From NCBI GenBank assembly GCA_000995065.1, contig LBWX01000002.1, forward strand, positions 1-60,585: a stretch of 60,585 bases of DNA, read 5' to 3'. The DNA comes from a candidate division CPR2 bacterium GW2011_GWC2_39_35 (GTDB taxonomy: Bacteria; Patescibacteriota; CPR2). The position numbers were made by a program, and so were the translations under genes. The notes beneath the pieces are model-generated. The model saw only the letters and a program-made list of their open reading frames with translations. It had not been told where the DNA came from and ran no database searches. This document shows, piece after piece, positions 1-54,764 of this stretch; within the stretch, counting starts at the first letter, position 1, and the number at the start of each line of letters is the position of its first letter.

Positions 1-1000
1 GTTGCCGCCAAATCTTGGTCTACCCCTTGATAGTTAATGGCAATGGTTGGAGTATCCGTCATGTCTTCATTAAAGACTGCTGTTACCCTTTGGGTGTCCG
101 CATCTCTCACTTTTCGGTTTAGGGAGTAGGTTAAATCTCCCGAATATCCGGGAGCCGTGTTATCAACCACAAAAGTATTGTTAGTCGCCTGAGTTGCCAA
201 GGCGTTTCCGGCGATGTCCGTGCCGGCGATGGTAATGGTGGCCGTGCCGTCATTGGCTGTCGGAATGTTAATGTCAAATGTCCAAACCGAGGCGTTGGCG
301 CCTTGGGTCATATTGGTTGCCGTAAGGTCCGACCCTGTACCGGCAAAGTCGATGGCGATTGTTGGATAGTTTGCCAAATCCTCAGAAAAGTTAGCGGTAA
401 CCGTTAGAGTATCGGCGTCTTTTACCTGATGATTAATAGAATAAGTAAGCGTTGTTGGATTATACACCGGAGCCGTATTGTCTACCGTAAAGGTGTTGTT
501 AGCCGCTTGAACTTCCAGGGCATTTCCGGCAATATCCGTGCCGGCAATAGCAATAGTAGCCATGCCGTCATTGTTTTCGCCGGATGGCACGTTTACGTTG
601 TAAGACCAAACACTGGCATTGGCTCCCTGAGTCATAGCAGTAGCGCTTAAGTCTTGATCAGCTCCGGCGTAATTGATGGCAATGGTTGGAGCGGAGGTTA
701 AATCCTCATTAAAGTTTGCCGTAACCGTTAGAGTGTCGGCGTCTTTTACGGCATGAATTATCCACCGTTACCCTTTGGCTGCCGTTACCGTCGTCATTAG
801 ACGTTACCGAATTTCCGGCCGCATCCGTAAGGATAACTTTGTAGGTATAGTTGCCGTCAGAAACAAAAGCCGCTAGGTCATCCTTGCCATTCCAAACGTC
901 TATTTGCGCCCCCTGCCCTCTAGATACGGCATTTACTAAAGTCCTCTTGAGGGTTAGACCCTCGTTAAAGATTTCTACCGTCACGGTTAGATTAGTGGCG
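1..1000 (-). repeat. Tandem Ig-like (about 108 aa, 324 bp period) domain repeats at the C-terminal part of the giant gene
   Basis: gtaaccgttagagt(a/g)tcggcgtcttttac occurs at 397 and 721. Translated units read VKDADTLTVTANF...GTDIAGNAL...NNTFTVDNTAP. Confidence 0.7.
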
Positions 1001-1419
1001 ACGTTATCCGAAATAGTGTAGTTAAGGCTTACATCATCCCTTCTTGTGTCAATTACCGAGGGCGAAAAAGGATCTAAAGAATCGGAAACAAGGGTAATTT
1101 CGGGATTAGTTTGATCGATGGTGATGGTATCGGTAGACGTTGCCTGATAGGCGATGTTTATATCTTGGATAATCGGCGTTGCCGAACCGTCAGAATTTAA
1201 TGTTGCCCGCCATCTTAAATCGCTTCCTCTGCCTGCCTCGGGAATAGTAAATTCTACTCCGGGCGTAACCGAATACCAATTAGTACCCCCGTTTGCAGTC
1301 ATTTCGTAAGTAATAGTCTGACCATTTAAAGTCTGGTTTGTTGTTAACGTTGCTTTGTAGATAGTGTCGGTAGTAGCGTTTAGTTTTATTGATTGGGCGA
1401 GCTTGGGAAATGTATAAAC

Positions 1420-2390
1420 TGGTCCCCACCCCCAAGTATCATTAACTAGTCCTGAGTCGGTAATTCCACCAAACAAAACTACTTTTTGGTTATAAATATC
1501 ATAAGCCATGGAAGATTCTTTCCTCCTAGCTGGTGATCCAGCGGCACCGTCAGCGGTCTTTTGAGTCCAGCTTGTACCATCCCATTCCCAAGTATCATTA
1601 ACTAGCCCTGCACAAAAACTAGCAGTACAGCCGCCAAATAAAAATGTTTTTTGACTCAAAGCATTATATGCTAAAGCATGGTACCCTCTTCTGGCTGGTG
1701 ATCCAGCGGCACCGTCAACGGTCTTTTGAGTCCAACTTGTACCATCCCATTCCCAAGTGTCGTTATTACGCGCTCCTCCTGCAGTAAACCCGCCAAATAA
1801 AACTGTTTTTTGACGATTAATATCATAGGCAATGCTTTGGCTGGTTGATCTTCTAGCTGGTGATCCAGCGGCACCGTCAGCGGTCTTTTGAGTCCAGCTT
1901 GTACCATCCCATTCCCAAGTGTCGTTAAAATAAGAACCGTTATACCCTCCAAACAAAACCGCTTTTTGACGCTGTGTATCATAAGCCATGGCGCCTGCAT
2001 ATCGCTTAGCCGGTGATCCGGCGGCACCGTCAGCTGTACGCTGTGTCCAACTGTTACCATCCCACTCCCAGGTGTCATTAAGATAAACAGAACCGGCGGA
2101 ATAGCCTCCAAAAAGCACTATTTTTTGACGCTGAGTATCATAAACCATGGAAGATTCTTTTCTTCTAGCTGGTGATCCGGCGGCACCGTCAGCGGTCTTT
2201 TGAGTCCAGCTTGTACCATCCCATTCCCAAGTGTCGTTTAATAAAGCTGACCCAGTTGCTTCTCCACCAAATATAACTACTTTTTGACTCTGTACGTCAT
2301 AAGTCATAGAAAAGCTCTTCCTCTTAGCCGGTGATCCGGCGGCACCGTCAGCGGTCTTTTGAGTCCAGCTTTCGGAAAATGGTAACTTAA
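1420..2390 (-). repeat. Six or seven Kelch-like blades with near-identical DNA cores
   Basis: Peptide NDTWEWDG(T/N)SWTQ(K/R)TADGAAGSPA(R/K)R...VLFGG repeats. The DNA word ggtgatccagcggcaccgtcagcggtcttttgagtccagcttgtaccatcccattcccaagt recurs about every 150-170 bp. Confidence 0.75.
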
Positions 2391-3859
2391 TCTCTCCACT
2401 TGTCCCATCCCAAATCGCCGTGGTTGCCCCGTCTTTATTATTAGTATTTGCAAAGGTGTCAAAATGACTGAACTGGTCGCTTACATTCCCGGCCGCATCC
2501 TTAAACCTGGCGTAAACTGTTTTTTCTCCGCCGCCGGCAAGTAAATTCCAGGAATGGTTGACCGTATCGTAGTCTAGCCAACCGGCATCAAGAATTGTGC
2601 CATCAGCATTGGTAGTCTTCCCCCAATCCGTGCCATTGTTACTAAACTGCATCTGCCCCGGAGTCATGCCGGATAGAGCATCCGTGGCCCCGCCGGCCTT
2701 TACGTTAACCTGAAAATCATTAGTATAATTATTACCGTCATTTATGGTAACCGTCCCGCCGGTTGGCGCGGCCGTATCCTTTAAAACCTTAAAGGCGTAT
2801 TCCGAAGAAACGGTTTCCCTTGCCGCATTGTCCACCACTTTTATCCAAACGTAATTCTCCCCGTCCTGCATGGCGCTCCACACGGCGGCGCTCAAAGACC
2901 AATCCGTGGTGTATGTATTGCCGGATAAATCCTGGTTTTTGGTCCAGACAAAGATAATGTTTTGGTCTACGGCCGTGGAGGCAGAAGTGGCCTGAATATA
3001 AAACTCTTTTAAACCCGAGCCAGAGTCGGCAAAGTCTACATTATAAGTGCCGGTATTGTCTTTATGATAAGTTGATTCATTGGACGCATGACTATTATGG
3101 TTGGGCTGTCCTGGGGGTAAGGTGTCGATGCCCACCGTCCAGGTGGAAGTAGACGCGGTTACGTTGCCGGCGTTATCCACCGCCTTTATCTGCCAGGTAT
3201 GGGTGCCGTCCGAAAGAGCGGCCGTTGGAGTAGTAGAAGTAACGGCATTAGAAATATTGTCTTTATCCAAACTGCCGTCTATAAACAACTGGTACTTAGC
3301 CATGCCGGAATAAGAATCGGACGAAGCGCCCCAAGAAAGGGTTGGATTATTAACCGTCTGCCAGGAATTATTAGCCGGCGTGGAAATATCAAAAGCAGCC
3401 GGGGCTGTTTGCAAATCGGAAAGAGTTGGGGTGTTAGCTCCATCGCCAACCAGTTCTAATCTTGTTTCAATTGTTTTAGTATTTGAAAAAGCAGATGACA
3501 AAGGAATGGTACCGGAATTGGAAGTTATTTCGTACCAAGTAGCGGTATTATCAGACGGATTTACATAGCCCGTGTCTCCGTTACCCCAATCATCAGCCGG
3601 ACGCACCTGGACTTTTATCTTATATGTGGCACCTATGCCACTGCCATTCCATTTTAAATTAAGCCATTTATATTTTTCGGGATTGGCTGGGTTCCCCATC
3701 CTAAGACCGGTACCGGTTGAGCCGAGAGTGCCGGAAGTTTGGAAAGTGGCCACAGGAGTAAACTGATGACTTGGAACAGTTGCTGAACCGTCTACCGGAC
3801 TACCGCCACTTCCTTTAACACCCCCGGACGATAGCGGCGTCCCACTAACTGCTGGCGCC

Positions 3860-4470
3860 TCAATTATAATTTGGCCGCCGCCGCCGCCGCCGCCGCCAGC
3901 CCAATTACCTCCACCATTACCACCAATAGCAGAAATATTATTAGCATTATTAACAGCGGTCTTACTAACAAGATAAACACTGCCACCGCTTCCGCCGCCG
4001 CCGCCACTACAATAAGTACCAGTACTGTTACCTCCCGCATTACCGTTAGCCAAAATATTACCATTTAATATTAAGTTTTCGGTTCGGACTTTAACTGCCC
4101 CGCCCCCGGATCCACCATTACCACCATTTTGGCCAGATGCAGCGCCACTGTCTCCTCCTCCCCCCCCGGAACCAAAAATACTGGTTGCATATCCATACGA
4201 AGAACCACCAAGAGCAACATCAGTAGTATAACAGCCAAAAGTACATCTTGTGCCGTTACCACCGCTACCCCCATAACCTCCGCCACTACCACTCCTATGA
4301 GTATGCGGCGTGGTGCCGATAGAGCCTATTCCTCCAATACCAGGACCATTACCATAACCATTTGTACCATTCGCAATACCACTACCAGGGAAAACGCCAC
4401 CATTACCGCCATTAAATCCTTTTCCCGAAGCATCAATTTTGCCTCCAACCTGTATGTCTAAAGTTCCCAT
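3860..4470 (-). repeat. Glycine-rich low-complexity segment (GGxGG runs, beta-helix-like) of the giant gene
   Basis: Translated GGNGGVFPGSG...GGNGGSGGGAVKV...NGNAGGNSTG...GGGGGSGGSVYL...GGNGGGNWAGGGGGGGGQIIIE. The antisense ORFs listed here are mirror artefacts. Confidence 0.6.
3874..3897. repeat. (GCC)8 trinucleotide microsatellite encoding Gly8 on the minus strand
   Basis: gccgccgccgccgccgccgccgcc read directly; corresponds to WAGGGGGGGGQ in ORF 709..4977. Confidence 0.9.
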
Positions 4471-5869
4471 TACTTTAAATTCGATTTTTACCCCAGATGC
4501 TGAACCAGATGGCCCATCAGTTGTTAAAATCCCTGTTCCGGTAATAGTAAAATTATTAAAATTAGGCACAGCCCCAGTTAATGGATTGTATGAACTAGCC
4601 CCGTGACCCAAATCTGTTTCATAAATTGTTTTAATAGTTTTAGAAGAAGAGAGGGTATAGTTACCATCAGCGCCAGTCCCTACATCTATACTTAAAGATT
4701 CAAGTTTCGTATCCCCCCCAGCTGTCAAATCAAGCTGGCTAGTTGTTGTCGCCGCCCCTTGGGTTGTGCCGTTCCAATCGGTTTGGGATGTAAATATCTT
4801 TGATGAAATATTCCCCGCATTATCCCTAAACCTCGCGTAAACGGTTTTTACTTCGTCGCCGGTGGGGATATTCCAATCCTGAAGCCCAACCCCATAAGCC
4901 AGCCAGCCGGGGTCTAAAATGGTGCCGTCAATATTAGTTGTCGATCCCCAATCCGTCCCGTTGTTAGAAAACTGCATCCACCTTAACGGCCGTAGCCTTG
5001 GCGTAAGTTGACGGGTTTAAACCGGTGGGGTCGGTTATGGTTATGGCCCCTCCGGACGGCGCAGTTTGCTCCACCGTAAAGTCGGTATTGTCGGCTCCGT
5101 TAAATTCCGTCCAAGTAGAAACTCTGGCAGCACTGTCTATAAGCCTTGAGCGCCACTTGTAAGTGGTGCTGGTTGGGAAATTAAGATCAAAAGTAACTTC
5201 TCCGTTTCCGCCTTCGGCGATGCCTGCATCAGTTGGACCATCATCTGTTTTACAAGCGCCATCAGTATTATATGGCGGACCACAAACAGCGTCATTCCAC
5301 ACATCAGCAGTCGGCCTTTTAAATTAGTGCCTTTAATTTTGATTTGGTTTTGATTTGTAAATCCCGTGCCCTTAGCGATAGCCGCATCATCATCCGCGCG
5401 ATGCTGGGAGATATAATTCTCCCCGCCGGAAGCCGTATCCTGAGGCGCGTCCATGGTGTTATAGGTAAGGGTTACGTTATCTAGGGTGGGCGTTGAGGTG
5501 CCGTCGGATTCCAACCGAACTAAAATTTCAAAATATTGTGCGGGAGAACTGGGCAGTCCGGATGCAGACATGGAAGTATAATGAAGCGGGGTCGGAGTAT
5601 TTTGCTGATCAGCATAAGTTTGGCCAAAATAATTATCCGTCCACGCCGTAGCAATATTGGCCACGTCAAAAGTGCCGCTCCGGCCGTAATAAGTCCAATT
5701 TGTTTTATTCGGCGAAGTCCGCACCAAAAACTTAACCGCCTCGCCCGTACTTAAAGCATTTTTAGTTGAAGTTATAGATTGAAAGTTTACATTTTCCGGA
5801 CTCGCCCCAAAATCTTTCCGCAACCCCACATCAGCAGCCCCAGTCCCGCCAAGGGAGCCGGGAGAAGTA

Positions 5870-6960
5870 AAGGTTTTACTAAGCTTTTCTACCCGCCACC
5901 GATTATTACCTAGACTGACATCATAGCCTGCTATATATAGCCCATCTCCACCCATTGCAATAGAATTGGCTTGATCAGAGCCAGTTGATGGATTGCTGGT
6001 ATATGTCCATTGGTTTTGGCCGGAGAAGTTTAACTTTTCCACTCGCCATTGGTTATTTCCTGGACTGATATCAATGCCGCCCACATAAAGACCATCGCTG
6101 CCGACGGCGATAGAGTTTGCAGAATCAAAACCGCCCGAAGGGTTACTGTTATATGTCCATTGGTTTTGGCCGGAGAAGTTTAATTTTTCCACTCGCCATC
6201 GGCTACTTCCTGAGATATCATAGCCGCCCACATAAAGACCATCGCTGCCGACGGCGATAGAGTTGGCCATATAAGCCGCAGTCGAAACATATGACCACTG
6301 GTTTTGGCCGGAGAGGTTTAACTTTTCCACCCGCCATTGTGGTGCGCCCATGAATCCACCGCCGCTACTTCCAGCTATATAAAGACCATCACTGCCAACG
6401 GCAATAGAACGCACCCCCTCATTACCCCCGTATGTTGAAGTTGTTGGGTTGTTGGTGTAAGTCCATTGGTGTTGGCCGGAGAAGTTTAGCTTTTCTACCC
6501 GCAACTGAAGATTGCCTAGGGTGCTCTGGTCGCTCCCGCCTATATAAATACCATCGCTGCCGACGGCGATTGCATAAAGAATATTTCCGCCATTGTTAGT
6601 TAAACTGTTATAAGCCCATTGTTGCTGGCCGGAAAAATTTAGTTTTTCTACCCGCCAACCAGATGAACCAACCCCACCCACATATATACCATCGCTGCCG
6701 ACGGCGATTGCGTACACTGTAGTAGAGCTAATATTATTAGTATAAGTCCACTGGTGCTGGCCGGAAAAATTTAGTTTTTCTACCCGCCACTGTGAAGCAA
6801 ATTGTCCTAACGCCTTATCAACCCCACCCACATATATACCATCGCTGCCTACAGCAACGGCAGTAGCATAATCGTCATAAGCCGTTGGATTGTTATTATA
6901 AGCAAAGGCAGCTGCTCCCGTATTACAACAAGCACCCGTTATGCCAACACTGCCGGCTGC
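5870..6960 (-). repeat. About nine tandem ~47-50 aa coding repeats, probably beta-propeller blades, inside the giant gene
   Basis: Recurrent peptide ...AIAVGSDG(I/L)YVGG...(Q/R)WRVEKLNFSGQxQWTY..., with a recurrent DNA word accatcgctgccgacggcgat at roughly 140-150 bp spacing. Confidence 0.7.
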
Positions 6961-7339
6961 TTGTATCTCCAAATTAGTCCGCGGATTCGTCTCCCAATCC
7001 GCATGACCGTCCGTTCCGCCGCTAACCGCATTATAATCAAAATCCGCCTGCGCGTCCCACGCAACAGTATGACTCCCCGCCTCCGCCATCCTCGGCTTGC
7101 CGGAAAAGTTAAAAGGGGAAATAAATTGCAGGGCCATAAAGGCTACAAAAGAAATACAAAAAGCATAAACAGAAGCTTTGTTTATAGAATGAGCGTAGGG
7201 CTTGGAATAGTATTTGTAGTAAGTTCTTTTCTTTTGAAAGGCATTATCGTGAAGTTTTCTAAATCTAATATGCAAAAAATACCGAATCTCCATAAAAAAC
7301 AACCGACCCAAATTCCAACGATAAACAATCCCCTTAAAA

Positions 7340-7373
7340 GGGTCTAACCCTTTTCTGGAGGGTTCGACCCTCC
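7340..7373. repeat. REP-like imperfect hairpin (GGGTCTAACCC / GGGTTCGACCC)
   Basis: Half-sites at 7340-7350 and 7361-7370 pair at 10/11 positions. Same word family as the hairpins flanking the RAYT gene. Lies just upstream of the preferred start of the giant gene. Confidence 0.6.
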
Positions 7374-7513
7374 CTGCGGGTTTACCAAATATCTTGTTAA
7401 ATATTTTTTTTATCATATCCCTTTGCACGCTCTTAATATCAACATTAACTCTATTCTATTGTATCCAAACAACCCTCGCCCCGCAAGCCCTTTTTAAAAA
7501 ATCCCAATACTCA

Positions 7514-7553
7514 AAAAGGGTTAGACCCTCCGGATGGAGGGTCTAACCCTTTT
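7514..7553. repeat. REP hairpin, perfect 18-bp arms
   Basis: AAAAGGGTTAGACCCTCC-GGAT-GGAGGGTCTAACCCTTTT, 4 nt from the stop of the RAYT gene. Confidence 0.85.
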
Positions 7554-7557
7554 CAAC

Positions 7558-8214
7558 TTAATCGATAGAAATATCCCCAATAATCATTTTGATATCTACT
7601 TTATCGGAAGCCATAAAATCAAAATAATTGCGATATGCCTTATTTTCATTATGACTAAGCATCTCCAAAATGAAATCAGTATTAAGCCAATTTGTCTTTC
7701 TTTTACCTAGGTAATCGTGAAGGCTTGAATAATCATAAGACGAAGCCTTGAGATCTAGATCTTTGGGATTTAAGTGAATATACCTTGAAACATGCAATAG
7801 GTACTCATCCGCTAAAACCGGAGCCGCCTTGTATGTACCTTGAAACAGAGAACCGACTCTATCATGGCGCTTATTAAAATACATGACGTAATTCGTAAGC
7901 AGTCCTCGCATAAATTCCGAAAGACCTTCGTCTCCTGTCTGACGAACCAACAGATGAAAATGGTTAGGCATCAAACAAAAGCAAAGCAGCTCAACCTCTC
8001 CATAAAACCTCCCCTTTTGAAGGGTCGAACCCTCCAGAAAAGGGTTAGACCCTTTTTCGGCATCTTCTTTTTTTAGGAGGTACATTTTTAAAATATAGAG
8101 GAACACCTTGTAATCTTTATCGTCAAGAAAAATATCCCTTTTTTCAACCCCGCGGTTAAAGATATGATAAGCTCCATTTTGTTCGAAGTTTTTAATCTTG
8201 TATTTAGCCGGCAT
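7558..8214 (-). CDS. IS200/Y1-type REP-associated tyrosine transposase (RAYT)
   Basis: HUH motif in LMPNHFHLLV and catalytic-Tyr region SRYIHLNP. N-terminus YHIFNRG is typical of the family. Flanked on both sides by REP hairpins. Confidence 0.8.
   Translation of the reverse strand: MPAKYKIKNFEQNGAYHIFNRGVEKRDIFLDDKDYKVFLYILKMYLLKKEDAEKGSNPFLEGSTLQKGRFYGEVELLCFCLMPNHFHLLVRQTGDEGLSEFMRGLLTNYVMYFNKRHDRVGSLFQGTYKAAPVLADEYLLHVSRYIHLNPKDLDLKASSYDYSSLHDYLGKRKTNWLNTDFILEMLSHNENKAYRNYFDFMASDKVDIKMIIGDISID
8019..8056. repeat. REP-like hairpin inside the RAYT coding sequence, in frame
   Basis: GAAGGGTCGAACCCTCC-AGAA-AAGGGTTAGACCCTTT with arms one mismatch from complementary. Encodes ...GSNPFLEGSTLQKGRF... 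just upstream of the HUH motif. Confidence 0.6.
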
Positions 8215-8254
8215 ATTTTTATGCTACTGCTAAATCCTATAAAACTCAAGCACC

Positions 8255-8292
8255 AAAGGGTCTAACCCTCCTACAGGAGGGTTAGACCCTTT
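8255..8292. repeat. REP hairpin, perfect 17-bp arms, opposite arm order to 7514-7553
   Basis: AAAGGGTCTAACCCTCC-TACA-GGAGGGTTAGACCCTTT, 41 nt upstream of the RAYT start. Confidence 0.85.
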
Positions 8293-11870: not shown

Positions 11871-12002
11871 ACGACTTATGCACCTAAATAGTATTGTTCG
11901 ACTCCTCATAGAGGGTGGAAAACTTTCATTATAAATTAAGGTGCTTTTCCACAAGGTCTAAGAATATTAATGTATGTTTAATGTGTTAAGTGCGTAAGTC
12001 GT
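11871..12002. mobile_element. Nested hairpin element. The outer 13-bp stem has a G.U-compatible mismatch. The inner part is a solo copy of the TTCGAC...GTCGAAGAATA family.
   Basis: ACGACTTATGCAC (11871-11883) pairs with GTGCGTAAGTCGT (11990-12002). The inner sequence TTCGACTCCTCATAGAGGGTGGAAAAC...GCTTTTCCACAAGGTCTAAGAATA aligns arm-for-arm with 53450-53797. Confidence 0.6.
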
Positions 12003-22168: not shown

Positions 22169-23080
22169 CTAATCAAGCGGTGGTAATTTTTTAGGCACGT
22201 TCACTTTAGCGTATTTGTAGCCGATTATCAAAATTACTAGAGAAACAAAAAGCACACCAAAAAATTCAATTAAGGCCGCCTTAAATAGAGTGGTCTGGAG
22301 GTTGGCGGCTATCGGCATAAAAATGTCTGCTTTTATAAAATCCGGGATCATTTTTAATTCCGGCAAAACAATGACCTTTATAATGCTTGATATAGTGAGA
22401 AATAAAAATAAAGCAATCAAAAATAGCATGTTTACGATAAACGTGTACCAGCCAATGGCCCTAAAAATATTTTTCTTTGGAACCCCGTAAGTTCTAAAAA
22501 AAGCAAGTACAGTAATTATGACAAAAGGAATTATTGGTAGAAGTAATATTCCTGTTAAGGCAACTTGCACATTTTCTCTGATGTTCTCTAGCCTTTCCAA
22601 ACTAACACCGGATACCGCCATTTCATCGGGAATACTCTTTAATGACTCGTCTAGAACTAAGTTTACTATAGGCAGGCTAGCCGGAGTAGACCGACCCACT
22701 ATAGCTTTACGAATAGCCCCTTTATTCGAGGAAATGTCCGTTGCATGAAGCTCATCTTCTTTCCCCTCCATGAAGTCGAAAAAACCCTTAATTTGGGCTT
22801 CGGTTTCTTTCCTCACAAATTCAGGCGGAAAAGCTTCTTTAATAGCAACCGCAACGACATCCTCTGTAATAAAAGGATTCTCGTTATCTTTTAAGATTTG
22901 CTTGGCAAGATAATCAGTATTGTTCGAGATAACCTCATAGATTTTAGCATCATTTGCGGCCCTCAAGATATTTTCGGAATTAAAAAGAAACAGCCTTAAA
23001 TTAAATAAGACAATCATCACTAAAAAGACCGGAACCAAGCAAATAAAAGTAATGAGCGAAAGAAATCTTATTAGCTTCAT
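22169..23080 (-). CDS. Integral membrane protein, function unknown
   Basis: Long intact ORF with hydrophobic N-terminal helix and several C-terminal helices. No recognisable motif. Confidence 0.5.
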   Translation of the reverse strand: MKLIRFLSLITFICLVPVFLVMIVLFNLRLFLFNSENILRAANDAKIYEVISNNTDYLAKQILKDNENPFITEDVVAVAIKEAFPPEFVRKETEAQIKGFFDFMEGKEDELHATDISSNKGAIRKAIVGRSTPASLPIVNLVLDESLKSIPDEMAVSGVSLERLENIRENVQVALTGILLLPIIPFVIITVLAFFRTYGVPKKNIFRAIGWYTFIVNMLFLIALFLFLTISSIIKVIVLPELKMIPDFIKADIFMPIAANLQTTLFKAALIEFFGVLFVSLVILIIGYKYAKVNVPKKLPPLD

Positions 23081-50305: not shown

Positions 50306-51228
50306 AACTTCCTAATATCTATCTTTCCTAACACAAAAGCCAAGAGCGCCATCCTTACGTAAAGTCCATTTTCTACCTGATCAAAATACTTGGCTCGTCT
50401 ATCCTCGTCTACGTCGGTGGCAATTTCATTCACGCGAGGCAACGGATGCATAATTATCATATCATTTTTAGCATTTGCCAAAAGACTTTTATTTAGAATA
50501 AACGAATCCTTAAGCCGCAAATAGTCAGCCTCCTCCGCAAATCTTTCTTTTTGAATCCGAGTCATGTACAAAACATCCACTTCCGGCAAAACGCTTTTTA
50601 AATCTTCCGTTTCCTCATAGTCTGCCACATTTTCCAAATATTTAGATGGGGTCTTAAGCTCCTCCGGCGAGACTAGATAAAACTTTACATCGTTATAAAG
50701 CGATAAAAGCTGAATCGTAGAATGCATCGTGCGCCCATATTTAAGATCGCCTACCATCGCAATCTTAAGCCCCTCAATCGTTTTCTTTTCCTTTTTTATT
50801 GTGTAGAAATCCAGAAAGGCTTGTGTTGGGTGGTCGCCCGGGCCATCACCAGCGTTAACTACGGGAATTTTGGCCGCTCCTGCCGCTATTTTGGCTGAAC
50901 CAAGTTCCGGATGACGAATTACAATTACATCTGCATATCTTTCGATAGTTTTGATGGTATCTTCCAAAGTCTCCCCTTTAGCCATCGAAGAAAAATTGAC
51001 TCCCGTCGCCGAAACTACTTGGCCGCCAAGTTTAAACATCGCTGCTTCGAAAGAAAAACGGGTTCTGGTAGAGGGTTCGAAAAAGAGGGAAGCCAGGATT
51101 TTGCCCCTTAGAAGATCCAGACTACCTTTGGCGTTAACTTCTTCTTCCATCTTAAAAGAGGCCTCAAGAATAGCTTCCAATTCGTCTTTGCTAAAATCGC
51201 TGATGGAAATGATGTCCTGCTTTGGCAT
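50257..51228 (-). CDS. pyrB: Aspartate carbamoyltransferase catalytic subunit; the last ~16 codons are supplied by the repeat element
   Basis: STRTR, HPTQ and HPLPR motifs. The tail LSLRANGERGNLLNNG is encoded by 50257-50305. Confidence 0.85.
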   Translation of the reverse strand: MPKQDIISISDFSKDELEAILEASFKMEEEVNAKGSLDLLRGKILASLFFEPSTRTRFSFEAAMFKLGGQVVSATGVNFSSMAKGETLEDTIKTIERYADVIVIRHPELGSAKIAAGAAKIPVVNAGDGPGDHPTQAFLDFYTIKKEKKTIEGLKIAMVGDLKYGRTMHSTIQLLSLYNDVKFYLVSPEELKTPSKYLENVADYEETEDLKSVLPEVDVLYMTRIQKERFAEEADYLRLKDSFILNKSLLANAKNDMIIMHPLPRVNEIATDVDEDRRAKYFDQVENGLYVRMALLAFVLGKIDIRKLSLRANGERGNLLNNG

Positions 51229-51266
51229 ATTTGGAGTTCCCTTTTATCTTTAGAGATTGTATATGA

Positions 51267-51290
51267 TTGTTCGAGCGAAGTCGAGAATAA
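51267..51290. repeat. Minimal copy of the TTCGA...TCGA(A)GAATAA element at the pyrC/pyrB junction
   Basis: TTGTTCGAGCGAAGTCGAGAATAA. Confidence 0.4.
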
Positions 51291-51300
51291 TTAATAAATT

Positions 51301-51340
51301 AATAGCCACTTGTTAAGCGATCGCGTTAAAAGTGGCTATT
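51301..51340 (-). terminator. Perfect 11-bp stem hairpin between pyrC and pyrB; an attenuator or terminator candidate
   Basis: AATAGCCACTT-18 nt loop containing GCGATCGC-AAGTGGCTATT, followed on the minus strand by AATTTATTAATTATT. Confidence 0.4.
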
Positions 51341-51364
51341 AACAGAATTATTTTATACAAAATA

Positions 51365-52525
51365 CTAGATACTAATCACTCTACCCTTCAGTCCCATCCC
51401 TTCATAGGGACTCCAGCCGCACTTGGAATGGAGATCCTTGGCATTTACTTCCCAAATCTCGTTCATATCAACTATCGTTTCAGCGCCAGCGTTATCTAAA
51501 CCGAATATTCTTGAAGCGTTCGTGCTTGTGAGTTCAATTAATTTTTCCATCGTCAATTTTCCTTCATTTACTGCATTTAGTATAAGGGGTAACAAAGTTT
51601 CGACACCAGGGATTCCGGATGGCGCCTGCCAGTATCCTTGCTTTTTTTCTTCAGGGAGATGCGGTGCATGATCGCTGCCCAGGCAATCGATAATACCGGC
51701 ATCAATAGCGTCCCAAAGCGCCTTTACGTGGTCTTTAGAACGAATTGGCGGATTTACTTTTACAAAATTGCCCCATTTGTCGTAGGCCGATTCGTCTAAA
51801 AATAAATGATGAGGCGTCACTTCGGCATAAACCGGCAAACCCTCGGCCTTGGCTTTTTTAATTAGCTCCACTTCATCCTTAGTAGAAATATGGCAAAAAT
51901 AAACCGGATGATTGGTTTTTCGAACCAGATTAAGGAGTTTTTCTACGGCCGAGGCAGCCGTTTCCGGATTTCTAATAAGAGAATGGATTTTAGGATCAGC
52001 CTGCCCTTCATATTTTTTGGTATTTTTCTGAATCAGTTCTTCATCTTCGGCATGAACAGTAATTACTTTGGTTGTCTCTTGCATCATTTTTTCTATGATT
52101 TTAAGATCGTTTACCAAAAGATTTCCGGTAGAAGAACCGAAATAGACCTTAATAGAAGCAATTTTATCCTCGACTTTCTTAATTTCCTCCAAATTATTGT
52201 TTGTTGCCCCAAAGTTAAAACCGAATTTTAAGCTATTTACTGCTCGAGCCTGTCTGGAAATACCCACGAATATTGCACTTCTCGACTCACTTCGCTCGCT
52301 CGAAGAATAATTGCCGGCTATCTTTTCTGTTTCTCTAATCTTCCAATCAAGATCAGCCTCAGTGGTTGTTGCCGGATTGGTATTCGGCATATCCAAAACG
52401 TAAGTTACCCCACCGGCCAAGGCTGCCGCCGAACCGGAACGATAATCTTCTTTATATTCTGCTCCGGGAGTTCGAAAATGAACATGCGGGTCGATGATGC
52501 CGGGAATAGAAATCTTTTTAGACAT
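51365..52525 (-). CDS. pyrC: Dihydroorotase
   Basis: IDPHVHFRTPG metal site, CHIST, GSDHAPH. Contains a repeat-derived segment SSSERSESRS. Confidence 0.85.
   Translation of the reverse strand: MSKKISIPGIIDPHVHFRTPGAEYKEDYRSGSAAALAGGVTYVLDMPNTNPATTTEADLDWKIRETEKIAGNYSSSERSESRSAIFVGISRQARAVNSLKFGFNFGATNNNLEEIKKVEDKIASIKVYFGSSTGNLLVNDLKIIEKMMQETTKVITVHAEDEELIQKNTKKYEGQADPKIHSLIRNPETAASAVEKLLNLVRKTNHPVYFCHISTKDEVELIKKAKAEGLPVYAEVTPHHLFLDESAYDKWGNFVKVNPPIRSKDHVKALWDAIDAGIIDCLGSDHAPHLPEEKKQGYWQAPSGIPGVETLLPLILNAVNEGKLTMEKLIELTSTNASRIFGLDNAGAETIVDMNEIWEVNAKDLHSKCGWSPYEGMGLKGRVISI
52279..52310. repeat. Copy of the TCGACTC...TCGAAGAATAA element inside pyrC, in frame
   Basis: CTTCTCGACTCACTTCGCTCGCTCGAAGAATAA. 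The right half matches 52577-52600 (CTCACTTCGTTCGAAGAATAA). Confidence 0.5.
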
Positions 52526-52540
52526 AAAGCTCCTTCCTTA

Positions 52541-52605
52541 CTGTTCGAACTCTAGGGAGAACTTTTGATCTCGGAGCTTCTCACTTCGTTCGAAGAATAA
52601 ACTCT
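52541..52605. repeat. Solo hairpin copy of the TTCGA(A)C...GTTCGAAGAATAA element at the pyrF/pyrC junction
   Basis: TGTTCGAACTCTAGGGAGAAC-TTTTGATCTCGGAGC-TTCTCACTTCGTTCGAAGAATAAA. Stems TTCGAAC/GTTCGAA and GAGAA/TTCTC. Confidence 0.6.
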
Positions 52606-52619
52606 TTATTTCCTACTAA

Positions 52620-53432
52620 CTATTTTCGATACTTATTTATCTCATCCCTAAGCTGGATGGTGGCTTCTCTGGCCGCTTCGGCGAAGTCTTCACCGGAAGA
52701 AGCATAGATAATGCCCCTGGCGGAAACAATTACCAGCCCCTTTCCGTCTTCTCTTAAACCAGCTTTAAGGGTTTTTTCGACGTCCCCGCCTTGAGATCCG
52801 ATTCCGGGAACTAAAAAAGTGGTTCCTGGCGCCATTTTCCGAATTGCCCCTAACTCCTCAGGGAAAGTGGCGCCGGTGACAAGCCCAGCATTACCGTTCT
52901 CATCCCATTCGAGTACCTTTTTAACCACAGTTTCGTAAAGCGGCTTACCATCGCAAATTAAGTTCTGAAAATCTGCCCCTCCCGGATTAGAAGTTCTCGC
53001 AAGCACAAAAATCCCTTTATCTTTGTATTCCAAAAAAGGTTTTACAGAGTCACTTCCCATATAAGGATTAATAGTTAAAGCGTCTGAGCCGAGATTATCA
53101 AACATGCTCTTAGCATACATCTTGGCGGTATTTCCAATATCATTTCTTTTGGCATCGATAATTACCAAACCATCAAGCTCGTGAACATAGTCGATCGTTT
53201 TCTTTAGAGATTCTAATCCTTTTATCCCGTAAGCCTCAAAAAAAGCAATATTTGGTTTATAAGCGCAGACGAGATCGATGGTCGTATCAACTATCCCTTT
53301 GCAAAAAGAAAATATGGGATCTTCATCGCCTAGTAAATGCTTAGGGATTTTATCCATATCCGGATCAAAACCCGGACAAACGAGAGAATTATTTTTTTCC
53401 TGTAGTTGTTCAAGTTGTTTAAAAAAGGTCAT
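52620..53432 (-). CDS. pyrF: Orotidine-5'-phosphate decarboxylase (long, type 2)
   Basis: DAKRNDIGNTA motif and overall length. Confidence 0.85.
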   Translation of the reverse strand: MTFFKQLEQLQEKNNSLVCPGFDPDMDKIPKHLLGDEDPIFSFCKGIVDTTIDLVCAYKPNIAFFEAYGIKGLESLKKTIDYVHELDGLVIIDAKRNDIGNTAKMYAKSMFDNLGSDALTINPYMGSDSVKPFLEYKDKGIFVLARTSNPGGADFQNLICDGKPLYETVVKKVLEWDENGNAGLVTGATFPEELGAIRKMAPGTTFLVPGIGSQGGDVEKTLKAGLREDGKGLVIVSARGIIYASSGEDFAEAAREATIQLRDEINKYRK

Positions 53433-53449
53433 ATTGTCTCCTTTTTATA

Positions 53450-53797
53450 CTTCGACTCTACGGAGTAGGTGGAGAAGTACCTTAAGATATAATTACCAAT
53501 CCTTTCCCCAAACTCCCTTAATCCGTTTTTCTTTCTTTTCTTTACCCCAACCTTTAATCTGATTTTATCTATTTCTTGCTTCTCTTAAATCTTCATGCTC
53601 TTCTAAATATACCATTCTCTTAACACCGTGCTCGGCTGTATATTTACCACCTAAACCAGATATATGCTGATCATATCGTGAATCTGCAGCCAGTTAAACC
53701 AGTATAATATGTATCATCCTTACACCACAAAATATATACATACCATTTCCATTGTTTTTTCATTAATGTACTTCTCCACAAGGTCGAAGAATAAAAT
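53450..53797 (-). mobile_element. Inverted-arm unit enclosing a decayed GIY-YIG nuclease gene
   Basis: Left arm CTTCGAC...GTGGAGAAGTAC (53450-53480). Right arm GTACTTCTCCAC..GTCGAAGAATA (53768-53794). 12-bp and 7-bp perfect complementary blocks. The gene fills the space between them. Confidence 0.65.
53493..53763 (-). pseudogene. GIY-YIG (UPF0213/YhbQ-like) nuclease pseudogene with one frameshift (~53690) and one in-frame TAA (53565-53567)
   Basis: My own translation: MKKQWKWYVYILWCKDDTYYTGLT / (shift) AADSRYDQHISGLGGKYTAEHGVKRMVYLEEHEDLREARNR * NQIKGWGKEKKEKRIKGVWGKDW. This matches the YVYIL...YTG.T.D...R..QH.SG.G.KYT...V..VY.E......A...E..IKGW pattern. Confidence 0.75.
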
Positions 53798-53834
53798 ATA
53801 CTTAGCTCTCAACTCCTAACTCTCTACTCATTTT

Positions 53835-54764
53835 TTATACCGTCTCCACCGCTCCTCGAAGATCATTAATGTCAGCAATATTATTCTCGATTAAGTAATT
53901 CTTGATTCCTTCTATTATTTCAAACGGTGAACGAGGATTGACAAAATTATAAGTACCAACGGCGACGGCGGTCGCTCCGGCTAAGATAAACTCCAGGGCG
54001 TCATTTGCATTAGAAATCCCGCCCATCCCGATAATTGGAATCTTAACGGCGTTAAAACACTGCCAGACCATCCTTACCGCCACCGGTTTTACGGCGGGAC
54101 CGGAAAGTCCACCGGTAACATTTGCCAAATGAAATTTCCGGGTTTTGACATCAATTGAGGTGCCGAGAAGCGTGTTTATTAAAGAAATTGCGTCGCTACC
54201 GGCGCCTTCTGCCGCCTTTGCAATTTCCATGATATCCGTAACGTTTGGCGTTAATTTGGTAATAATGGTTAAATCCGTCGCTTTTCTAACTGCTTTAACC
54301 ACCTTTTCAGTTTCTTTAGGATCGCTTCCAAACTGAAACCCACCCCTTTTAAGATTTGGGCAAGACACGTTAATCTCGATTCCGGTTATTTTTCCGGTCG
54401 CAGTTAGCTTTTCGGCAAGCAATGCATATTCCTCGGCGCTCTCGGCCGAGATATTAATAATGATCGGGATGTCAAATTTTTCGTATCTTGGCAGAACTTC
54501 TTTTATAAAATGGTCAATGCCCGGATTTTGAAGCCCGATAGCATTAAGCATTCCGGATGGTGTTTCGATAGTTCTCGGCGGCTTATTGCCTTCTTTAGGG
54601 TTTAAGGTGATGCCTTTAGGAACAACGGCTCCCAAGACAGATAAATCAAAATAATTGTCACTCTGAAGACCAAAAGTTCCCGACGCCACCGTTACCGGAT
54701 TCTTCATTTTGATGCCGGAAACTTGAACGCTTAAATTTGGTTTAGCTAGTGTACTCATTACCAC
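53835..54764 (-). CDS. pyrD: Dihydroorotate dehydrogenase, class 1B catalytic subunit
   Basis: NPVTVASGTFG, NISCPN-like INVSCPNLK, GGISNANDALEFILAGATAV. Confidence 0.85.
   Translation of the reverse strand: MVMSTLAKPNLSVQVSGIKMKNPVTVASGTFGLQSDNYFDLSVLGAVVPKGITLNPKEGNKPPRTIETPSGMLNAIGLQNPGIDHFIKEVLPRYEKFDIPIIINISAESAEEYALLAEKLTATGKITGIEINVSCPNLKRGGFQFGSDPKETEKVVKAVRKATDLTIITKLTPNVTDIMEIAKAAEGAGSDAISLINTLLGTSIDVKTRKFHLANVTGGLSGPAVKPVAVRMVWQCFNAVKIPIIGMGGISNANDALEFILAGATAVAVGTYNFVNPRSPFEIIEGIKNYLIENNIADINDLRGAVETV

Follow-up and report, generated by a model that had tools for sequence, protein, structure and literature searches.

The closest described counterparts of the locus reported here are the Ssn nucleases and their hairpin repeats. 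Single-domain GIY-YIG proteins of ~94 aa (CDD cd10448) act as site- and strand-specific single-stranded-DNA nucleases and bind a tagged hairpin repeat, named NTS or Ssn-related motif (SRM), CGTCATTCCCGCG... (Chenal et al., 2025, Nat Commun 16:2388; PMC11893778). These enzymes cut single-stranded DNA, not double-stranded DNA or RNA, and the strand-specific cleavage takes place next to the hairpin. The repeats are found near 71% of ssn genes, flank both sides in 42%, and reach hundreds of copies. Of the genomes rich in SRMs, 81% encode an Ssn protein. The NTS-ssnA-NTS arrangement was likened to an insertion sequence (IS), in parallel to the repetitive extragenic palindromes (REPs) and their associated tyrosine transposases (RAYTs); mobility was not demonstrated. 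Membership was defined by the cd10448 clade or by a BLASTP E value below 1e-10 to N. meningitidis SsnA (CAX49033.1), and the survey was based on NCBI reference and representative bacterial genomes (PMC11893778). Another set of REPs carries a CGTC tag and includes Neisseria dRS3 and the Rickettsia palindromic elements RPE-4 and RPE-6 (Di Nocera et al., 2013; PMC3733652). Their dimers are frequent and often combine two unit variants, copies occur inside genes, and these repeats were said to 'lack a dedicated transposase' (PMC3733652). Here we analysed a 60,585-nt stretch of the candidate division CPR2 bacterium GW2011_GWC2_39_35 (contig LBWX01000002.1, positions 1 to 60,585; hereafter the window). 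The spacer between pyrD and pyrF in this window holds a dead cassette, in which a GIY-YIG gene stands between a hairpin unit and an inverted unit, and which is likely to be a TATT-tagged variant of the Ssn/SRM system. Four further loci in the window (elements B, C, E and D) probably represent its dispersed non-autonomous form, resembling the paired REPs known as REPINs.

The genes pyrD (53835-54764, minus strand) and pyrF (52620-53432, minus strand) are separated by 402 nt, and a small GIY-YIG gene is located in the gap. This gene is inactivated. The spacer, which contains element A, has the following features:

53493 to 53763, minus strand: GIY-YIG (Ssn-like) pseudogene, with a repaired product of ~89-90 aa, identified by its Pfam match and by comparison with homologues.
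53676 to 53691, minus strand: frameshift lesion, 16 nt in place of the 18 nt of intact homologues (codons for WKPELR).
53565 to 53567, minus strand: in-frame TAA, standing where the intact homologue at locus L031 has GAA.
53771 to 53793, minus strand: upstream hairpin unit of element A, TATTCTTCGACCTTGTGGAGAAG, C-type; the same left unit precedes the intact gene at locus L004.
53446 to 53477, plus strand: downstream hairpin unit of element A, TATACTTCGACTCTACGGAGTAGGTGGAGAAG on the plus strand, C-type, with an 11-nt internal mini-hairpin.

A reading of the sequence alone had proposed a GIY-YIG gene on the minus strand at 53493-53763. In agreement with this proposal, the repaired 89-aa translation matches the Pfam GIY-YIG model over residues 6-77 with 48.8 bits (E 8.6e-13; cut-off 22.6). 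No second GIY-YIG signal was found in a search of the whole window. On the minus strand, the pseudogene starts with the ATG at 53763-53761 and ends with the TAA at 53495-53493. The frameshift is a 2-nt deficit between the conserved YYTGLT and YDQH codons, as compared with the intact homologue of an Omnitrophota metagenome-assembled genome (MAG) at L031. The sequence-only reading had placed one extra nucleotide near 53690; the effect on the frame is the same, and the actual lesion is the deficit at 53676-53691. The premature TAA (53567-53565), which had been recognized in that reading, takes the place of the nearly invariant catalytic Glu in the RExQIK motif. In an alignment of nuclease homologues (A3), Y10, Y20, R29 and H33 show no variation and E66 shows almost none. 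The family therefore has the Ssn layout of a single ~90-aa domain with catalytic Tyr, Tyr, Arg, His and Glu residues, with TAA in place of Glu in the window copy. An independent JGI contig (L217) is identical to the window across the entire spacer and carries the same pseudogene, which shows that the lesions are real and not an assembly error of the window. The pyrC product on this contig (P0054, 96% identical) is 16 residues shorter near the C-terminus, in the KDLHSKCGWSPYEGM region, than that of the window; this reflects either a true deletion or a difference in assembly or gene call. The nearest named relatives of the window pyrC are proteins of 'Patescibacteria group bacterium'.

The pseudogene is enclosed by complementary arms, as had been claimed from the sequence. 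A 17-nt inverted repeat (53469-53485 and 53763-53779) is 94% complementary, and a 7-nt outer pair is formed by CTTCGAC and GTCGAAG. In gene orientation, element A reads TATTCTTCGACCTTGTGGAGAAG, gene, CTTCTCCAC..GTCGAAGTATA, from 53793 down to 53446. The GGAGAAG tract of the upstream unit is located ~10 nt ahead of the pseudogene ATG. Across the window and the homologue loci described below, the purine tract GGAGAAG or CGAGAAG at the end of the left unit is positioned 2-18 nt upstream of the start codons, and may serve as a ribosome-binding site.

Arms of the same type recur at four other loci in the window, all of which are true members of the family:

11892 to 11966, minus strand: element B, gene-less head-to-head dimer of 75 nt, intergenic.
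52539 to 52599, minus strand: element C, gene-less dimer of 61 nt, in the pyrF-pyrC spacer.
52238 to 52309, minus strand: element E, gene-less dimer in frame within pyrC, encoding most of the extra peptide (G)NYSSSERSESRSAIFVGISRQARAV.
51265 to 51288, minus strand: element D, a lone unit, ATTCTCGACTTCGCTCGAACAATC, that resembles the canonical right unit, GTTCTCGACTTCGCTCGAACAATA; in the pyrC-pyrB spacer.

These four loci had been listed in the sequence-only reading, which noted only the left half of the full pair in pyrC (52238-52309); the locus at 51265-51288 is a single unit. With at most two mismatches in total, the termini TATTCTTCGA...TCGAACAATA are found at 4 loci in the window, compared with 0.1 expected in simulations. 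With two mismatches allowed per end, a setting that this criterion replaced, the terminus search did not exceed chance (21 matches, against 20.3 in simulations). About three perfect 12-mer inverted pairs within 400 nt are expected per window, so that one such pair is not significant alone, and CTTCGAC by itself is not enriched in the window. A right-arm-like match at 22918-22928, located inside a membrane-protein open reading frame (ORF) and lacking a partner arm, was set aside as partial or due to chance. The orientation of the five window copies agrees in every case with that of the genes.

The arms were also compared with known RNA elements. An Rfam scan of the whole window at the gathering score gave no match, and a scan of 51200-53900 at E values up to 10 gave only a chance-level rhtB match (24 bits, threshold 55). 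A PyrR attenuator or binding site, a small ribozyme and a known riboswitch were dropped, as nothing relevant appeared in these scans. No tRNA or tmRNA gene was found in the window. When the gene-less copies were folded as RNA, the z-scores for the gene strand were unremarkable. Beside the solo unit D, the pyrC-pyrB spacer holds a separate palindrome, TTAATAGCCACTT...AAGTGGCTATTAA (51299-51342), which overlaps the chance-level rhtB match.

The repeat unit is ~23-45 nt long and comprises TATT[C/G]TTCGA(C/G)C, a variable loop and GT(G/C)GAGAA[G/C]. In ~100 units, the combination of the fifth base with the last one is C...G or G...C without exception; C...C and G...G do not occur. In a typical pair, a C-type unit comes first and a G-type unit, inverted, comes second, and pairing of the two arms with each other would leave conserved C.C and G.G mismatches. 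Locus L004 is a chimera of two core variants, in which the closing-pair rule within each unit is still obeyed. Each arm thus appears to be a self-contained, self-folding hairpin unit and not merely half of one hairpin. An alignment of 15 hand-picked units (from the window, L005, L027, L052, L218 and L219) places TATT-tagged units base for base on GTCAT/CGTC-tagged units, to which they are homologous. The 5-bp outer stem shows compensatory changes; columns 9 and 36 of this alignment contain six UA, five CG and four GC pairs, and none is unpaired. Paired cells amount to 88%, as opposed to 66% in shuffles, none of 500 shuffles attains this value, and registers that were slid give lower scores. 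The core variants CGACC...GTGGAG and CGAGC...GTCGAG are always matched within a unit but fit no single consistent helix, and base-pair covariation is not claimed for them.

Intact relatives of the nuclease carry the same arms. The repaired protein retrieves 53 protein clusters, the best of which is 70% identical and some of which are named Candidatus Daviesbacteria, and it is 60-70% identical to the intact proteins P0001-P0035. Nine loci with intact homologues (55-70% identical) were read for flanking arms, a comparison that the sequence-only reading had proposed. As in the window, the hairpin repeat is present on both sides of the gene in seven of the nine (L001, L002/L003, L004, L005, L011/L012, L031 and L216). 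The gene is nested between the arms at these loci, and its stop codon abuts the right unit. The right arm has decayed at L213, and two complete arm pairs flank the gene at L215. The left arm at L001 is the left half of element E of the window. Compensating changes are present in both arms at L011, where CCTGAGCG pairs with CGCTCAGG. A gene-less copy immediately follows the gene cassette at L002/L003, and at L216 the units have the opposite polarity with respect to the gene. The neighbouring genes are different at each homologue locus, which argues against a locus-specific regulatory element. The nuclease of an Omnitrophota MAG is ~69% identical to that of the patescibacterial window, and this identity points to horizontal spread. 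The nuclease matched no NCBIfam family. A plasmid collection contained only six weak relatives (at most 39% identical). Viral contigs contained no dimer, and their nuclease relatives are at most 54% identical in a match over 36 residues and at most 44% in longer matches; a phage vector therefore finds no support in these contigs.

Two of the loci collected in these searches hold further repeats. A perfect Neisseria-type NTS, TGTCATTCCCGCGAAAGCGGGAATCCAG, is present at 1401-1428 of L002, although the GIY-YIG gene on this contig belongs to the TATT-associated type. In an Omnitrophota MAG (L072, 4429-4704), a GIY-YIG gene of another subfamily is located between different inverted arms, TCCCGCACCTTTT and AAAAGGTGCGGGA. 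Inverted repeats around small GIY-YIG genes may therefore be a general feature.

The pyr operon of two relatives provides evidence for insertion. L218 (GCA_023473595.1, Patescibacteria) and L219 were recovered through their pyrC homologues, which are 66% identical; a pyrF search in JGI metagenome contigs gave best relatives of 52-55% identity, too distant for an empty-site comparison. Both relatives have the gene order pyrK-pyrD-pyrF-pyrC, as in the window. The pyrD and pyrF genes of each relative share 4 nt (ATGA), compared with the 402-nt spacer in the window. The sequence-only reading had pointed to such orthologous empty sites as a check on its proposal. Because the two genes overlap in L218 and L219, the spacer with its cassette represents an insertion in the lineage of the window, although its boundaries are not nucleotide-exact owing to the divergence of these relatives. 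Presence/absence polymorphism is thus observed at orthologous sites. A second insertion is found within pyrC. The alignment with solved dihydroorotases covers residues 4-63 and 100-382 of the window protein, and ~26 extra residues between these blocks fall exactly at element E. Of 10 aligned homologues, 7 do not have the extra segment, and the insertion that element E represents in pyrC is in frame. In-frame insertion in protein-coding genes is reportedly a hallmark of the Rickettsia palindromic elements.

The tag type differs between lineages at the same sites. At the pyrC site of element E, L219 has a well-preserved TATT-type pair and L218 has a GTCAT-tagged pair (pyrC at 7001-8173 in L218 and 5180-6373 in L219). 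The pyrF-pyrC spacer (6908-7000 in L218 and 5106-5179 in L219) holds GTCAT-tagged dimers in both relatives and element C in the window. The same two sites thus carry TATT pairs in one lineage and GTCAT pairs in another, and L219 has both. This switch may have come about by replacement at the site, by several insertions at a hot spot, or by re-tagging. In the pyrC-pyrB spacer, L218 carries a cassette with a different small GIY-YIG gene (GFTKKY...NPDWKDLY type) in the same layout of unit, gene and inverted unit, built of GTCAT units; the orthologous spacer of the window holds the solo unit D. The sequence-only reading had taken arms at orthologous positions in genomes without the gene as a sign of conserved regulatory hairpins. 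Arms are indeed present in the pyrF-pyrC spacer and inside pyrC at 66% protein identity. They are accordingly long-lived and not simply fresh insertions of MITEs (miniature inverted-repeat transposable elements), while the picture of a gene-bearing unit accompanied by gene-less copies stands.

Gene-less pairs are widely distributed. A scan of one genome per GTDB species with the pattern TTCTCSAC-N(0-25)-TCGAACRATA matched at least 120 loci; we estimate that chance alone would give well over a thousand matches in the 596 Gb covered. Among the matches listed, 78 loci have no partner arm, which fits this expectation, and 42 loci (contigs) hold 52 distinct complete gene-less arm pairs of 46-126 nt. 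The patescibacterial hosts among the matches listed comprise relatives of Daviesbacteria, Curtiss-, Roizman-, Doudna-, Berkel- and Portnoybacteria, WWE3, Saccharibacteria and Paceibacterota. The Omnitrophota are represented by several MAGs, with at least eight contigs of one MAG, and by one single-cell genome. Stahlbacteria, Auribacterota, Eisenbacteria and MAGs deposited as 'uncultured Gammaproteobacteria' are also among these hosts. As with SRM, the repeat is therefore dispersed and multi-copy, both in the window and in the Omnitrophota MAG. Lineages known from MAGs, such as Patescibacteria and Omnitrophota, are expected to be poorly covered in reference and representative genomes.

Terminal inverted repeats of ~11 bp (TATT[C/G]TTCGAG) are present at both ends of ~50 copies. 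The polarity of 51 dimers was compared with their surroundings. Relative to the flanking ORFs, 26 are co-oriented and 20 are in the opposite orientation; relative to GC skew, the numbers are 24 and 20. Polarity that follows the direction of transcription or replication was rejected on these counts. The uniform orientation in the window hence does not hold in general, and an RNA function that depends on orientation is unlikely. A TAG immediately precedes the right unit in 10 of 33 looped gene-less pairs, with no matching signal on the left side. This is ~3 times the expected frequency of ~10%, a rough composition-based estimate that was not computed by a tool. The excess is only suggestive; gene-less pairs may have arisen by internal deletion, with TAG as a relic stop codon. 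The sequence-only reading had proposed an autonomous element with miniature derivatives. A gene-bearing unit with many gene-less copies agrees with this proposal; the gene-less copies, however, are head-to-head dimers of self-folding units, similar to REPINs, and not the halves of a hairpin. TATT-type units also cluster and nest at L031 (reverse strand, ~1440-2020 in reversed coordinates), L032 (1574-1691) and L097 (13-116). These clusters include a pair within the arm of another pair and tandem pairs, which recalls mosaics of the bacterial interspersed mosaic element (BIME) type.

On this evidence, we consider it likely that the pyrD-pyrF spacer is a dead cassette of a TATT-tagged Ssn/SRM variant and that elements B, C, E and D are its gene-less form; the link to the Ssn system rests on the architecture and on the alignment of units. 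Several observations weigh against this interpretation. The published SRM pattern, HGTCWYN(0-2)YYVSBRHN(0-5)WNVSBRGN(0-2)RNCYNB, matches no arm, and its sole match in the window (51815) is unrelated; it likewise fails to match the GTCAT units in L218 and L219 and is thus narrow. The window nuclease is only 30% identical (E 9e-11) to the GTCAT-associated GIY-YIG protein of L218, and the hidden Markov model (HMM) of its subfamily gives 67 bits for the UPF0213 protein BH0048, 59 for the L218 protein and 56 for EF2693. Any GIY-YIG gene is near only 2 of the 42 pair-bearing 8-kb loci among the matches listed. The flanks of ~60 copies show no consistent target-site duplication, and a TA duplication would be indistinguishable from the terminal TA of the repeat. 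Free-energy prediction gives weak values for single units (-2 to -4 kcal/mol), no better than for shuffles, so that the case for unit folding rests on covariation. Hairpin dimers also persist at orthologous sites across ~34% protein divergence, which indicates that turnover can be slow. The best solved relatives of the nuclease are the UPF0213 proteins 1ZG2 and 1YWL, and the nuclease appears from these comparisons to form a distinct subfamily, about as distant from the L218 enzyme as from UPF0213 proteins.

The mobility of the cassette is supported by the filled and empty sites, and we infer that the GIY-YIG protein drives this mobility as a transposase. By homology with SsnA (PMC11893778), the intact enzyme would bind single-stranded DNA at the folded unit, and only in one strand orientation, and would cut a few nucleotides 5´ of the folded unit, beside the tag. 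With less confidence, such cuts on exposed single strands might allow units, dimers and the gene-bearing cassette to copy to new sites or to convert in place. Gene-less dimers might then rely on nuclease supplied in trans, and the local repeats might be relics, given the dead local nuclease, unless an intact copy is located outside the window. A broader idea is offered only tentatively and is, in our judgement, more doubtful than not. Small stand-alone GIY-YIG nucleases might be the transposases of a distinct single-strand 'hairpin-dimer' class of transposons, a counterpart of IS200/IS605 and REPINs. The tag variants (TATT versus CGTC/GTCAT) would be specificity pairs, insertion in frame into essential genes would be tolerated, and resident dimers would be overwritten by the other tag type. 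Such overwriting is suggested by the pyrC site and the pyrF-pyrC spacer, which hold TATT or GTCAT dimers depending on the lineage.

The nesting of the gene could also arise by homing. The dimers would then be pre-existing host or selfish repeats, the nuclease gene would separately invade the dimer loop by cutting and repair copying, and the gene-less copies would be targets rather than offspring. The exact position of the gene between two units in seven of the nine loci, with the stop codon abutting the right unit, is compatible with this explanation, as are the different core types that left and right units can have (L004), the reversed polarity at L216 and the gene between two complete dimers at L215. 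Gene-less dimers far outnumber gene-bearing ones, and the pyrC-pyrB spacer holds a cassette in L218 and a solo unit in the window, as expected if repeats are invaded. At the empty pyrD/pyrF site of the relatives, however, there is no dimer at all, so that units and gene came together, or a dimer came first and left no trace. The frequent TAG before the right unit of gene-less dimers fits a relic stop codon, and the known Ssn enzymes cut single-stranded DNA, unlike classical double-strand-break homing. Homing is regarded as unlikely.

A host function of the hairpins is less probable still. In this explanation, they would be regulatory or structural operon elements (mRNA stabilisers, processing sites or attenuators like E. 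coli REPs), and the GIY-YIG gene would be an unrelated passenger. Three copies in spacers of the pyr operon, dimers in the orthologous pyrF-pyrC spacer of two relatives and the common orientation of the window copies would suit such a role. Against it stand the lack of any relation between polarity and coding strand or GC skew in the 51 dimers, the copies within coding sequence, the different neighbouring genes at each homologue locus, and the absence of an Rfam match or a PyrR site. Moreover, the gene is bracketed by units or complete dimers at nine independent homologue loci, unlike a chance passenger. A co-opted effect of the dimers on neighbouring genes would nevertheless agree with the preferred explanation. 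That the arms are a chance inverted repeat around a decayed gene, with low-complexity matches at the other loci, is already refuted, even though a 12-mer inverted pair is expected by chance and CTTCGAC is not enriched. Both termini are matched at far more loci than expected, the same arms surround intact homologues from unrelated samples, and dozens of copies are found in other genomes. The dead TATT-tagged cassette with its gene-less copies remains the preferred explanation.

A second, different unit may be present near the start of the window. An ORF at 7558-8214 (minus strand, 218 aa) matches Pfam Y1_Tnp, the IS200-like transposase family, with 36 bits. Inverted copies of AAAAGGGTCTAACCCTTTTCTGGAGGGTTCGACCCT (7335-7370, plus strand, and 8024-8060, minus strand) bracket this ORF, as do palindromes at ~7514-7553 and ~8255-8290, and the region 7335-8290 resembles a REP/RAYT-type unit with a Y1 transposase. 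The G+C content of window positions 1-8000 is 44-49%, as opposed to 37-42% elsewhere; also encoded in this region are a Kelch/Ig-like repeat protein of 1422 aa and an ORF of 763 aa without a Pfam match.

The work on Ssn nucleases left open how the repeats multiply and whether the repeat-gene-repeat unit is mobile (PMC11893778), and the present locus and its relatives give comparative evidence on both questions. A filled site is opposed to a cleanly empty one with overlapping genes, which is evidence that cassettes of this type insert whole, and gene-bearing and gene-less forms share the same ends. An in-frame insertion in an essential gene has been kept across ~34% protein divergence, and two tag types alternate at the same sites. 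The Ssn/hairpin-repeat system is thereby extended to Patescibacteria and Omnitrophota. The repeat TATT[C/G]TTCGA...GAGAA[G/C] and its nuclease would constitute a new specificity pair, and the enzyme is a candidate sequence-specific single-stranded-DNA nuclease. For annotation, the element accounts for odd palindromes of 60-90 nt and for ~25-aa peptide insertions in genes of these small genomes.

Compared with known mobile elements, the system combines features of several groups. GIY-YIG homing endonucleases such as I-TevI and Seg share the catalytic domain and a selfish-gene lifestyle, but the nuclease domain of these enzymes is joined to a second domain for DNA binding, they are encoded in introns or by free-standing phage genes, and their target is double-stranded DNA at a single cognate site in a gene. 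The element described here encodes a bare ~89-aa domain, is associated with a dispersed repeat rather than with an intron or a phage gene, and is located in chromosomal operons. With IS elements and MITEs it shares terminal inverted repeats of ~11 bp, short gene-less copies that are more numerous, and filled and empty sites. It differs in that no consistent target-site duplication is visible, the protein belongs to no established prokaryotic transposase family, and the ends are self-folding hairpins. The likeness to REP/REPIN-RAYT systems consists in one protein gene between inverted repeat copies, in gene-less dimers and in long vertical persistence; recognition of hairpins on single-stranded DNA would be a further common trait, if the analogy holds for the present element. 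The protein is a GIY-YIG nuclease, in contrast to the Y1 (HUH, IS200/IS605-type) tyrosine transposase of RAYTs. The CGTC-tagged REPs are likewise short tagged palindromes that form head-to-head dimers and have copies within genes. The tag and the stem sequence are different, and a GIY-YIG gene is the associated protein gene here, as it is in the Ssn system (PMC11893778).

The closest resemblance is to the Ssn/SRM system. In both, a single-domain GIY-YIG protein of ~90 aa is encoded by a gene that is flanked 5´ and 3´ by dispersed multi-copy hairpin repeats, a short unpaired 5´ tag gives the repeat its polarity, and the layout of gene and repeats is IS-like. The sequence-only reading had regarded a hairpin-bounded unit of this kind as undescribed, a view superseded by the report of Ssn nucleases with cognate hairpin repeats (PMC11893778). 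A literature search found no paper that describes the TATT-tagged variant. The tag here is TATT[C/G] and not (C)GTCA, the hosts are Patescibacteria, Omnitrophota and similar bacteria known mostly from MAGs, and the window copy is dead. Relative to the Ssn work, the architecture itself is thus already known, and the TATT[C/G] tag, the distinct nuclease subfamily and the hosts appear to be new.

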